Below, piece after piece: positions 16,835 to 20,167 of a stretch of 55,391 nucleotides of DNA (the stretch's first letter is position 1; each line of letters starts with the position of its first letter). This stretch comes from Promethearchaeota archaeon (lineage in GTDB: Archaea > Asgardarchaeota > Lokiarchaeia > Sigyniarchaeales > SOKP01), in contig RDOA01000020.1 in NCBI GenBank assembly GCA_011364925.1, positions 1 to 55,391 of the forward strand. Direction: 5' to 3'. Both the position numbers and the translations under genes were made by a program. A model generated the notes under the pieces. That model saw nothing but the letters and a program-made list of their open reading frames with translations. It did no database searches and was not told where the DNA came from.

Positions 16835-17129
16835 AATCTTTTCAAGATATTGATTTAAGACATTTTTCACACTTCCTTTATTGATATTAATGTTTTCCAA
16901 TCGTTTTTCTCAGTTAATTTGATTGATAAACGCCTAAAATTTAAAATTAAAAGAGAAACATAGAAAATGTGGTCTCAAAACATAAAAAATAGAAGTTACA
17001 TATTGAGATATCACTTACATAATACCTCATATTATTTAGGGCTGAAAAAATTCCTAATTCTTAAATATTTTTAAATTCTAATATTTAGTTAAGCAGACTT
17101 AATGATAATTAAGGGTTCCTTTATATAAA

Positions 17130-19076
17130 TTGAGTTCCGACAAAAATCAAGATCTATTAGAAAAGCAACTTAAAACACTAGGTCAAAAAATAAGAATTGA
17201 CATTTTAAAAAAGTTAAGTCTAACTAGCGATCCTTTACCCTATTCATCGCTGCAAAAGGAAGTATTGGGAACAAATCCAAATTCCATAAATTTTTCATTT
17301 CATTTAAAAGCGTTAAAAAATAGCGTTCTAATAGAATCATCTGATAATGGCTATATGTTAAGTCTTCTTGGGAAACAGATTTTAAAGAACATTGTGTCTA
17401 TTGAACAAATCCTTAATAATAATAATAAGACAGTAATGATTAGGACTTCTAAATACTCAAAGGAACCATTTGATGTTAATAAAATCGAAGAATATTTGAT
17501 CAAGGAAGGAGAAGTAGAAAAAAGCGAAGCAGAACAAATCGCAAGGGAGGTCGAAGAACGTTTATCAAAAACAAACATTAATTATTTAACAGCGCCCTTG
17601 ATGAGGGAATACATTAATGTTATTTTATTAGAAAATGGTCAAGAAGAAATTAGGCACAAATTAACGAGATTAGGTACCCCTCCTTTTGACGTGCATAAAA
17701 GTTTTGATAACTCTTTATTAGGTCCCGAGCAGTTTCTCTCAAAATTAGGATCAGATGTATCTGAGCAATTTTTACTCTTAAATTTAATTCCTAAAAACTT
17801 AGCTGATCTTTACTTATCTGGAGATATTGCCCTACTTAATCTAAATTACTGGAGTTTAAGACCTTTAGCACTACTGTTGGATACAAAAGCAATTGTAAAT
17901 TATGTTCAAGATCGATATTCGATAAATGGGGAGAAAAGTAACCTTAAAGTAAACAATATCAGGTTAATAACACATTTCTTCGACACTCTTGCTATGATGA
18001 GCCCTTACTTCTCCGAAGATATATTACTTTGTAACTTTTCCGAAATGTTAGTGGCTCTTCAAAATTGTAATGGACAGGGTTCACAACTTCTAAAAATTCT
18101 AATGTCACAACTTTTCAATCATAACAGACATCCATACGACGTAAAATCCCACCTATCCCTTGAAATTTCCAATCACGATGTTTTTTTTGATGAGATATTT
18201 AACCAAATCGATACAAGTGAGGAGCCTATTGCTCCGTTGATCTTATTTGATTTTAATAAACTTAATACTACTAACAGTTCATACAATCTCTTTATCCAGA
18301 ATATAAAATTAGGTAATTGTCGTAATTTTATCTTCTATAATAAGAAAAAGTCAAGTTTACTTAATTCTACGCATATTAATGCCACCAATTCAAATGGTGA
18401 TAAAACTATAGAAAATAGAATCGTTTTGGATAAAATTTTAATAAATTTACATAAGATTGCTGAAGATTCTAATCAAGATGATGCTAAATACTTTGAAAAG
18501 CTACAGAAAAAACTCGATTCTGTTTTTACCCTCTTCTCTTATAAGAAGGAATTAGTAAGTCGTAAGTTGAAATCCTCAAATCGATGGAAAAGAATAATTT
18601 CTGCCTTTTTTCAATCTGACGACGCTAAATTTTTTAACAATGCGTTAAAATCTGTCAGCTTTTTTGGCTTTAATGAAGCAATTAAAACTCATTGTGGTAT
18701 CGAGATTGATAGAATTGAACCAAGTGAGTCATTTGCGTTGAAAGTTTTAGATTTTATGGGAAAATTAATTGAAGAAAAAAACCAGGACGAAAGTGAAAAT
18801 TTTGTCTTAACTCAACCTCATTACGATTCTTATTTATACGATGCGTGGCACAACACTCAACATAATTTAAATGATACAGCTGATCAATACAGTATTAATA
18901 TTGTCAGAGGTGATTCGAAAGCGCCACTCAATAGAAAAATTGAGTTATACAGTAAATTTGGGAAACTCCTTAGAGGAGGAAGCTTATTTACATCAGGAAT
19001 CGATAAAAAATCTGTCGAGGATCAACTGGATGTTTTAATAAAATCAAAAATAAATGCATTTCAATTAAAAATTTAA
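17130..19076 (+). CDS. Winged-HTH + ATP-cone + degenerate class III ribonucleotide reductase (NrdD-like) fusion
   Basis: R..IL..L...PLPYSSLQ...FSFHLKAL..S.LI (ArsR-like wHTH); VMIRTS...EPFD..KI...L..E...YLTAPLMRE (ATP-cone); RHKLTRLG.P, INL.KIA, GFNEA, GG motifs of NrdD; radical sites absent. Confidence 0.78.
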   Translation: MSSDKNQDLLEKQLKTLGQKIRIDILKKLSLTSDPLPYSSLQKEVLGTNPNSINFSFHLKALKNSVLIESSDNGYMLSLLGKQILKNIVSIEQILNNNNKTVMIRTSKYSKEPFDVNKIEEYLIKEGEVEKSEAEQIAREVEERLSKTNINYLTAPLMREYINVILLENGQEEIRHKLTRLGTPPFDVHKSFDNSLLGPEQFLSKLGSDVSEQFLLLNLIPKNLADLYLSGDIALLNLNYWSLRPLALLLDTKAIVNYVQDRYSINGEKSNLKVNNIRLITHFFDTLAMMSPYFSEDILLCNFSEMLVALQNCNGQGSQLLKILMSQLFNHNRHPYDVKSHLSLEISNHDVFFDEIFNQIDTSEEPIAPLILFDFNKLNTTNSSYNLFIQNIKLGNCRNFIFYNKKKSSLLNSTHINATNSNGDKTIENRIVLDKILINLHKIAEDSNQDDAKYFEKLQKKLDSVFTLFSYKKELVSRKLKSSNRWKRIISAFFQSDDAKFFNNALKSVSFFGFNEAIKTHCGIEIDRIEPSESFALKVLDFMGKLIEEKNQDESENFVLTQPHYDSYLYDAWHNTQHNLNDTADQYSINIVRGDSKAPLNRKIELYSKFGKLLRGGSLFTSGIDKKSVEDQLDVLIKSKINAFQLKI

Positions 19077-19086
19077 CTCAACAGTT

Positions 19087-20013
19087 TTAATCTGATAAGA
19101 GTTCAGCCAGTATTGCCTTTCTCATTGGAATTCCATAATATGCCTGTTTAAAGAAAATTGCCTTTGGTGAATCGTCAATCTCGGATGAAATCTCGTTAAC
19201 TCTTGGTAATGGGTGCATTATCTTAAAGTCGTCTTTCGTTTCTTCCATATCCTTTTTAGTAAACACATAAAAATCTTTAACTCTATCGTATTCTTCAATA
19301 TCGGCGAATCGTTCTTTTTGTATTCTTGTAATATAAAGAACATCAAGAATACCTAAAATGTCTCGATATCTCTCAATCTCTTTATACTTCACATGTCTCT
19401 GTTGCAAAAAATCCTTGTCTCTGTTTCTCAACATCAAGTCCTTAGGACTTATAAAGTATATATTCGCTTCGAAATTTGATAGTAGAATAGATAATGAATG
19501 AACCGTTCGACCATATTTCAAATCACCCATTATCCCAATATTTAATCCATCTAATTTATGTCCTGCTTGAGTAATTGTTAATAAATCTAAGAGAGCCTGA
19601 GTAGGATGTTCTCCACTTCCAGATCCCGCGTTAATAACAGGTATTCGTGCAAATTTAGCAGCTAACCTTGCCGCACCTTCTAAATTATGCCTAATCACAA
19701 TACCATCACAGTAATTCTCTACAGTTCGAACAGTATCTGCGATGGTTTCACCTTTTTTAGTTGAAGCCACGTCTCCAGTGTGAAAACCAATTACATTCCC
19801 TCCAAGACGATACATTGCTGATTCAAAACTTAACCTTGTCCTAGTAGAAGGCTCAAAAAATAAAGTGGCAAGAATTTTTCCTTTTAAAATCTCAGAGTTT
19901 TTATCGTTATTAATCATTTCTTTGCTTTTTTGGAGTAGATAATCAATATCTTCTCGCGTAAAATCCTTCGCTGTTATGATTCCTTCTTCAAATTTTTCTT
20001 TAAACGACATCAT
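19087..20013 (-). CDS. pyrB: Aspartate carbamoyltransferase catalytic subunit
   Basis: FFEPSTRT, HPTQ, GDLKYGRTVHS, HPLPR; start moved to ATG 20013 (or 20010) from the track's upstream TTG. Confidence 0.97.
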   Translation of the reverse strand: MMSFKEKFEEGIITAKDFTREDIDYLLQKSKEMINNDKNSEILKGKILATLFFEPSTRTRLSFESAMYRLGGNVIGFHTGDVASTKKGETIADTVRTVENYCDGIVIRHNLEGAARLAAKFARIPVINAGSGSGEHPTQALLDLLTITQAGHKLDGLNIGIMGDLKYGRTVHSLSILLSNFEANIYFISPKDLMLRNRDKDFLQQRHVKYKEIERYRDILGILDVLYITRIQKERFADIEEYDRVKDFYVFTKKDMEETKDDFKIMHPLPRVNEISSEIDDSPKAIFFKQAYYGIPMRKAILAELLSD

Positions 20014-20167
20014 TCTGAACAAAAGTTTTAATAAAATTATTGTAATACCATATAAAACATTTTTTATTAACCTATGCTTTCCTAACAAAGAATAACGCAG
20101 AACTAATAAAATTTAAAATTTATAAATAATTAAATAATTTAAGTTGAACTTTAAAGGTGTGTGAAAA

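Follow-up and report, generated by a model that had tools for sequence, protein, structure and literature searches.

A catalytically dead NrdD derivative with a winged-helix head is a candidate nucleotide-sensing regulator of ribonucleotide reductase genes in Asgard archaea

A stretch of 55,391 nucleotides from a Promethearchaeota archaeon (GenBank assembly GCA_011364925.1, contig RDOA01000020.1, positions 1 to 55,391 of the forward strand; hereafter the window) carries a gene whose product joins an ArsR-like winged helix-turn-helix (wHTH), an ATP-cone and a barrel related to NrdD, the class III ribonucleotide reductase (RNR). We conclude with high confidence that this protein is a catalytically dead NrdD derivative, maintained by selection, that carries a DNA-binding head. 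It is moderately probable that it acts as an autoregulated, nucleotide-sensing regulator of both reductase genes of its genome (nrdD and nrdJ), and hence as a functional analogue of NrdR; it is called the regulator below. Within this reading, we infer nucleotide binding, binding of the shared element by the regulator itself and the sign of regulation. A conserved candidate element shared by the regulator, nrdD and nrdJ provides new evidence beyond the sequence of the gene itself.

An earlier reading of the DNA from its letters (the sequence-only reading) had proposed the order wHTH, ATP-cone and NrdD, and Pfam finds the three domains in that order. The N-terminal domain matches DUF7347 (PF24038) with 39.7-44.1 bits against a cut-off of 27.6, while the first 90 positions of the family profile match ArsR, HxlR and CzrA structures. 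In the predicted model, the domain consists of three helices and a beta-hairpin wing (aa 20-77). The presumed recognition helix spans aa 55-64, and N54, S56, F57, H58, L59, L62 and K63 are each at least 95% conserved in the family. The ATP-cone scores 25.3 bits in the whole protein and 31.2 bits for the domain alone (cut-off 25.8). Eight residues (R105, E126, R159, L166, R175, R180, G182 and P184) are invariant in 94 of 94 aligned sequences, R180 being located just past the Pfam cone match. The Pfam NRDD match covers aa 392-624 only, at 53.1 bits with a cut-off of 26.2, and the TIGR02487 equivalog model yields 49.3 bits versus a cut-off of 326.

The fold of the C-terminal part was as foreseen from the letters. 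An AlphaFold2 model of the regulator was built from a 94-sequence alignment (mean pLDDT 86.2, pTM 0.76), and the best 36 Foldseek matches to this model in the PDB are all class III RNR. Using VIA-align, model residues 197-648 could be placed on residues 120-675 of P. copri NrdD (8p27_A) with Z 31.0 and an rmsd of 3.4 Å over 438 residues. As model residue 648 pairs with residue 675, and the glycyl-radical domain of the P. copri enzyme comprises residues 676-739 (PMC11226230), the regulator ends precisely where the barrel core is complete. The true NrdD of the same genome (P0122) aligns by hhalign over regulator residues 102-642 and its own residues 29-645 (probability 99.9%). The P0122 zinc site (C656-C673) and Gly686 lie beyond the aligned region and their counterparts are absent from the regulator, in keeping with the earlier statement that the protein ends before the zinc site and the glycyl-radical loop.

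The loss of the MGCR finger loop, read as LLNSTH from the letters, was likewise confirmed. Thr414 occupies the column of the thiyl-radical cysteine, both in a multiple sequence alignment (MSA) via intermediates and in an alignment of the family profile to the 'MGC' of S. thermophilus NrdD. This column holds Cys in 4 of the 94 aligned sequences, namely the true NrdDs P0122 and P0245 and 2 of the 92 other members. The first active-site cysteine (C181 in P0122) corresponds to Ala247 in the MSA, while the Asn of the NLPR strand is kept (Asn439). BLASTP and hhalign pair C397 (GNCR) with the CCR of the true NrdD; C397 was rejected as the thiyl cysteine because it precedes strand 400-403 (the loop being 404-429), because only 6 of 40 members have Cys at this position, and because of the Thr414 alignments. 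Close orthologues also lack the catalytic Cys and RxxGY, and the copy is thus not merely truncated. With respect to NrdD membership, the barrel fold is shared whereas the defining catalytic features (the thiyl Cys, and the zinc site with RxxGY) are absent. A separate cysteine, Cys522 (18693-18695, within FFGFNEAIKTHCG), is present without exception in close family members (40 of 40), and P0122 has another residue there.

The gene is under purifying selection and is not a decaying copy. Values of dN/dS against two close relatives (93% and 87% amino acid identity) are 0.28 and 0.19. By region, the wHTH (0-0.09) and the cone (0.07-0.13) have the smallest values and aa 261-429 the largest (0.33-0.42). 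Identity to the regulator over 40 members follows the same regions, with 73% for the cone, 67% for the wHTH, 64% for aa 179-260 and 32% for aa 261-429. The latter stretch is the region of the active-site loops in the enzyme, so that the conservation pattern is the reverse of that of an enzyme. The reading that this is an intact frame and no pseudogene holds: the 648 codons are uninterrupted, and a length of ~650-670 aa is kept in hundreds of homologues. These are frequently named 'anaerobic ribonucleoside-triphosphate reductase' in databases, the one point in favour of a decaying or truncated NrdD pseudogene, or of a still-active reductase with unusual chemistry. Either is highly improbable given the dN/dS values, the lack of a conserved Cys at both active-site positions and of a glycyl-radical domain, a barrel interior that is the least conserved part, and a TIGR02487 score far below the cut-off.

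A word-index search returned at least 476 homologues, the best 120 of which are ~640-670 aa long, have the same three domains and derive mostly from Lokiarchaeota/Promethearchaeota records. An exhaustive search returned 723 representative clusters. Distant members of 700-850 aa keep the wHTH and the cone, and many have a C-terminal Cys4 zinc ribbon without the RxxGY context or the finger-loop Cys. In a sample of 201 genomes from the phylum, the wHTH form was found in seven families (f1, 38/40; f2, 3/3; f15, 3/3; f21, 5/6; f17, 3/4; f23, 2/3; f11, 1/1), while family f9 has ordinary NrdD only and no wHTH form. No description was found in the literature on the family itself, DUF7347, ATP-cone/NrdD in archaea, Asgard RNR regulators or pseudoenzyme RNR.

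Working reductases are encoded elsewhere in the same genome (G000; assembly of 3.9 Mb, 100% complete), which answers the question of a separate active RNR raised with the sequence-only reading. A full NrdD (P0122) with CCR, zinc site and RITGY is encoded on contig C101, an NrdG2-type activase on contig C48, and a class II RNR (nrdJ) with an ATP-cone and the NPCGEQ motif on contig C24. The latter was found by an ATP-cone search; a search with PF02867 gave no match, though the class II enzyme is present in the genome. No NrdG match occurs on the contig of the window, as had been noted before. No NrdR was seen in the genome, since no further ATP-cone protein reaches the Pfam cut-off. A 148-aa ATP-cone-like open reading frame (ORF) was considered as an NrdR candidate and rejected, having no zinc ribbon and a weak cone match (E 0.012).

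The upstream regions of the regulator, nrdD and nrdJ were compared in 23-26 genomes of the genus. A 9-nt element, CCGA(C/T)AAAA, with the core [G/T]CCGA[C/T]AAAA[A/T]T, was found at all three genes, and CCGAY[AG]AAA occurs in 39/42 regulator, 24/26 nrdD and 19/26 nrdJ orthologues. The octamer CGACAAAA is the only 8-mer not composed of A and T alone that is present in nearly all regulator and nrdD upstream sets (96% in each), whereas nrdJ upstream regions mostly have CGATAAAA. The element is located 64-87 nt before the start codon of nrdD (ACCGACGAAAAT in G000), at a fixed position of -48 in nrdJ, and at +7 from the start codon in nearly all regulator orthologues; in two genus members it lies upstream of an ATG start of the regulator. 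This sharing supports the regulator proposed by the sequence-only reading, with DNA and nucleotide binding presumed.

The regulator copy overlaps coding sequence and is constrained at the level of nucleotides rather than protein, because the amino acid of codon 3 varies while NCC-GAC persists. Genus orthologues have TCC or GCC at codon 3 and always GAC at codon 4, codons that account for 8-10% and 22% of synonymous usage in the genome. In six other genera codon 3 is GCC, ACC, TCC or CCC (Ala, Thr, Ser or Pro), with CC-GAC-AAA-A kept in 17 of 19 sequences. The position of the start codon is itself constant, with TTG or GTG in all genus orthologues and ATG in orthologues from other genera of the family; the TTG start is credible because these codons are kept at the matching position. 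The extended motif occurs at 41 sites in G000, most of them inside genes. Five sites are non-coding with the start of a sense gene within 300 nt, and three of these five belong to the regulator, nrdD and nrdJ. The nrdD leader of genus g14 contains GCCGACAAAATACGACAAAAA, a tandem whose period is 10 nt, and additional CGACAAAA copies spaced by 11 nt are seen upstream of several nrdJ genes. The 10-11-nt spacing suggests a protein bound to one face of the DNA helix.

In all three genes the element is preceded, at a distance of 54-80 nt, by a conserved TATA-like box. In the nrdJ leader (L079:1415-1426) the 12-mer TAGGTTAAGGCA is invariant in 11 leaders and lies ~25 nt after a TTTATATTA box. Similar [A/G]TTAAG[G/C] blocks stand at the matching relative place in the regulator and nrdD promoters, and may represent a second shared element or the initiator region. 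A distal block with an inverted repeat, ~40 nt upstream of the regulator TATA (Table 1), was not seen at nrdD or nrdJ. Palindromes near nrdD (TAACGG-N7-CCGTTA) were rejected as operator candidates, not being conserved in orthologues.

A homodimer model of aa 179-648 scores 0.80 against 0.00 for the best control, a pass that may reflect only likeness to solved NrdD dimers. Of 30 proteins whose structures were solved as pairs of one chain, 20 reach this mark, as does 1 of the 23 whose structures contain a single chain. Agreement between runs covers at least 85% of contacts, with a partner pLDDT of at least 81. The modelled interface (179-218, 239-244, 277-293 and 319-330) lies inside the conserved region that follows the cone, which in NrdD is the region of dimerisation and of specificity effector binding.

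Taken as a whole, the regulator is a non-catalytic offshoot of NrdD. The ATP-cone and the barrel scaffold remain, including the N-terminal portion of the barrel through which NrdD dimerises; an ArsR-like winged helix was gained, and the thiyl Cys, the second active-site Cys and the entire glycyl-radical domain were lost. In the proposed mechanism, a homodimer would sense ATP/dATP via its ATP-cones, and the NrdD-type dimer interface that it retains might sense deoxynucleoside triphosphates (dNTPs). In a manner set by the bound nucleotides, its two winged helices would bind the CCGA(C/T)AAAA boxes in the leaders of nrdD, nrdJ and its own gene, and box binding would tune reductase expression together with autoregulation, as NrdR does in bacteria. 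A broader version is more tentative, and we hold it at somewhat less than even chances: an Asgard family of transcription factors derived from the very enzyme it controls, in which a dead NrdD dimer reads ATP/dATP at the ATP-cones, perhaps dNTPs at the interface of the retained specificity site, and binds single or helical-phase tandem CGACAAAA boxes in the leaders of the class II and class III reductase genes and of its own gene. It would be an independent, pseudoenzyme-based invention of the NrdR function.

Several observations weigh against regulation of the reductase genes through this element. The 9-mer by itself is not rare: loose matching gives 135 sites genome-wide, and the window has 3 where 2.3 are expected. 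It is asymmetric, always in sense orientation and located ~30-55 nt downstream of the putative transcription start sites (TSSs) placed from the TATA-like boxes. Archaeal repressors do not usually bind at such a position, which would equally suit a site acting in RNA. Copies are missing at nrdG, at nrdJ in five genus members and at the start of the g14 regulators, and no clear copy was seen in nrdD upstream regions of family f2. In family f9, which yielded no wHTH form, all 20 nrdD upstream regions lack the element; this speaks for a link between the two, yet phylogeny and GC content confound the contrast with f1. RNR genes are not adjacent to the distant family members, and the basic residues of the ATP-cone match known phosphate binders only approximately. 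The element was also not found upstream of the distant members P0157 and P0155. One regulator from an f2-family genome has CCGACAAAA 43 nt upstream of its start (L124:4719-4727) and a second copy within its last codons.

A shared element indicates co-regulation and leaves the identity of the binder aside. Another transcription factor might therefore bind it, with the regulator protein acting as a co-regulated accessory that heterodimerises with the true NrdD or buffers nucleotides. The conserved, NrdD-like dimer interface region would suit such a role. We regard this as unlikely, as the wHTH is under the strongest purifying selection of the protein and its recognition helix is nearly invariant, which is hard to explain without nucleic-acid binding.

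Slightly less likely again is control at the level of RNA, in which the regulator or another factor binds CCGAYAAAA in the nrdD and nrdJ mRNA leaders and at the translation start of the regulator, and thereby controls translation or stability. If the TATA and start assignments are right, the element lies in the transcribed leader in sense orientation, which keeps this mechanism alive, and the +7 placement of the regulator copy in almost every orthologue, counted from the start codon, also fits it. On the other hand, the regulator begins with an ArsR-like wHTH, which belongs to a type that binds DNA, and the periodicity of tandem copies (at nrdD in g14 and, for several genomes, at a distance upstream of nrdJ) suggests one DNA helix face. 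Moreover, the nrdJ leader revealed no conserved structure (3 pairs, -1 kcal/mol, no covariation), and Rfam gave no match.

It is improbable that the regulator serves other targets, such as pyrimidine synthesis via pyrB or a wider regulon, with the match to the reductase genes being a coincidence. The synteny of S7, regulator and convergent pyrB in close relatives and the further non-coding motif sites of the genome could be read in this way. However, pyrB is convergent and thus shares no promoter with the regulator, the remaining motif-bearing genes in G000 look unrelated or are of unknown function (MGMT-like, CoA-transferase, VWA, polyprenyl synthase, small unknowns), and the element has been kept at nrdD and nrdJ in many genomes. 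The reading we favour is that of an autoregulated, nucleotide-sensing regulator of nrdD and nrdJ.

The features of the locus are collected in Table 1. The regulator comes after an rpoA''-L30e-NusA-S12-S7 cluster, an order retained in close relatives, and its ORF ends 10 nt from that of pyrB, exactly as the sequence-only reading had it. Close relatives have a called pyrB product of 307 aa, 26 codons shorter than the mechanical ORF here (TTG start, 333 aa), and judging from these the true start probably lies downstream of the mechanical TTG.

Table 1 Features of the regulator locus, with positions in the window
Feature	Position	Strand	Basis or remark
Whole gene: wHTH, ATP-cone and NrdD-like barrel without glycyl-radical domain	17130..19076	+	Single intact ORF, 648 codons/648 aa, TTG start
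Distal block GATATCAC-N-ACATAATA(C/T)C, GATAT/ATATC inverted repeat	17007..17026	+	Conserved in all genus orthologues
Putative BRE/TATA (TTCCTAATTCTTAAATAT)	17051..17068	+	Conserved in orthologues
Conserved TTTAGTTAAGCAGA block ~25 nt past TATA, likely TSS region	17084..17097	+	Resembles TAGGTTAAGGCA of nrdJ and TTAAGGG of nrdD
CCGACAAAA element over codons 3-5; extended form TCCGACAAAAAT at 17136-17147	17137..17145	+	Nucleotide-level conservation, common to nrdD and nrdJ leaders
ArsR-like wHTH, DUF7347, aa 14-88	17169..17393	+	Pfam, E 6e-10
ATP-cone, aa 103-174	17436..17651	+	Pfam and invariant residues
NrdD-type alpha/beta barrel core, aa ~179-648; end at core/glycyl-radical-domain boundary	17664..19073	+	Alignments and model
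Finger-loop remnant, aa 404-429; Thr414 codon (18369-18371) in thiyl-radical Cys position	18339..18416	+	Alignments and model
pyrB (aspartate carbamoyltransferase), convergent neighbour	19087..20088	-	Synteny S12-S7-regulator<-pyrB kept in close relatives

Further observations concern the reductase genes and ATP-cone proteins of the genus. The rejected 148-aa ORF (C91:23392-23838 = L116:93-539, minus strand) has a TRIGFPF linker after the cone that resembles the N-terminus of NrdD, and similar frames of 144-197 aa are present in many relatives. A second NrdD paralogue of 600-630 aa, 45-54% identical to NrdD, is encoded in many genus members (e.g. G012:C4:27360-28448, G019:C37, G007:C46) and no counterpart was found in G000; in g12, one of the copies is preceded by ACGACAAAAAT. 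Some nrdD (G013:C36, G014:C211) and nrdJ (G044:C87, G016:C24, G005:C201) frames are ~1100-1250 aa long with matches split in two, for example 1-185 and 179-711, or 1-450 and 448-583. These long frames point to inteins or similar in-frame insertions.

How archaea control their dNTP supply is poorly understood, and NrdR has been reported in only some archaea (PMC9110341). The family described here has a wide distribution among Asgard archaea, and its members are often annotated as active reductases; metabolic reconstructions that count them as such need correction. If the proposed role is true, protein, candidate operator and target genes together make a concrete, testable system, and a clear case in which a pseudoenzyme has taken on the sensing of its own pathway.

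Three known systems come closest to the regulator. With ArsR/SmtB-type regulators and DUF7347 it shares the N-terminal 90 aa, which match DUF7347 and, as a family profile, ArsR, CzrA and HxlR structures. Unlike these, its wHTH does not stand alone and is fused to an ATP-cone and an enzyme scaffold. With class III NrdD (P. copri 8P27/8P23, T4 1H78, T. maritima 4COI and P0122) it has in common an N-terminal ATP-cone, an RHKLTRLG-type linker, a 10-stranded barrel, the Asn of the NLPR strand and, as modelled in the regulator, the NrdD-type dimer interface. It differs in the absence of the thiyl Cys (Thr414), the second Cys (Ala247), the zinc ribbon and the glycyl-radical loop, in an NxN-flap stretch that is 7 residues shorter (hhalign), in the extra N-terminal wHTH and in a poorly conserved barrel interior.

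The probable function parallels that of NrdR, the bacterial repressor of RNR operons with a zinc ribbon and an ATP-cone (PMC9110341, PMC12176259), in that an ATP-cone is joined to a DNA-binding domain, a (candidate) operator occurs at several RNR genes and at the gene itself, and nucleotide-dependent control of dNTP supply is proposed. In contrast to the zinc ribbon of NrdR, the regulator has a wHTH (no CxxC pair occurs in aa 1-100), and it carries a 470-aa dead enzyme body. Its candidate site is the asymmetric CCGAYAAAA, whereas the NrdR box is a 16-bp palindrome. NrdR family models gave no match in the regulator. It is thus not a member of NrdR, and its origin is independent, from the enzyme itself.

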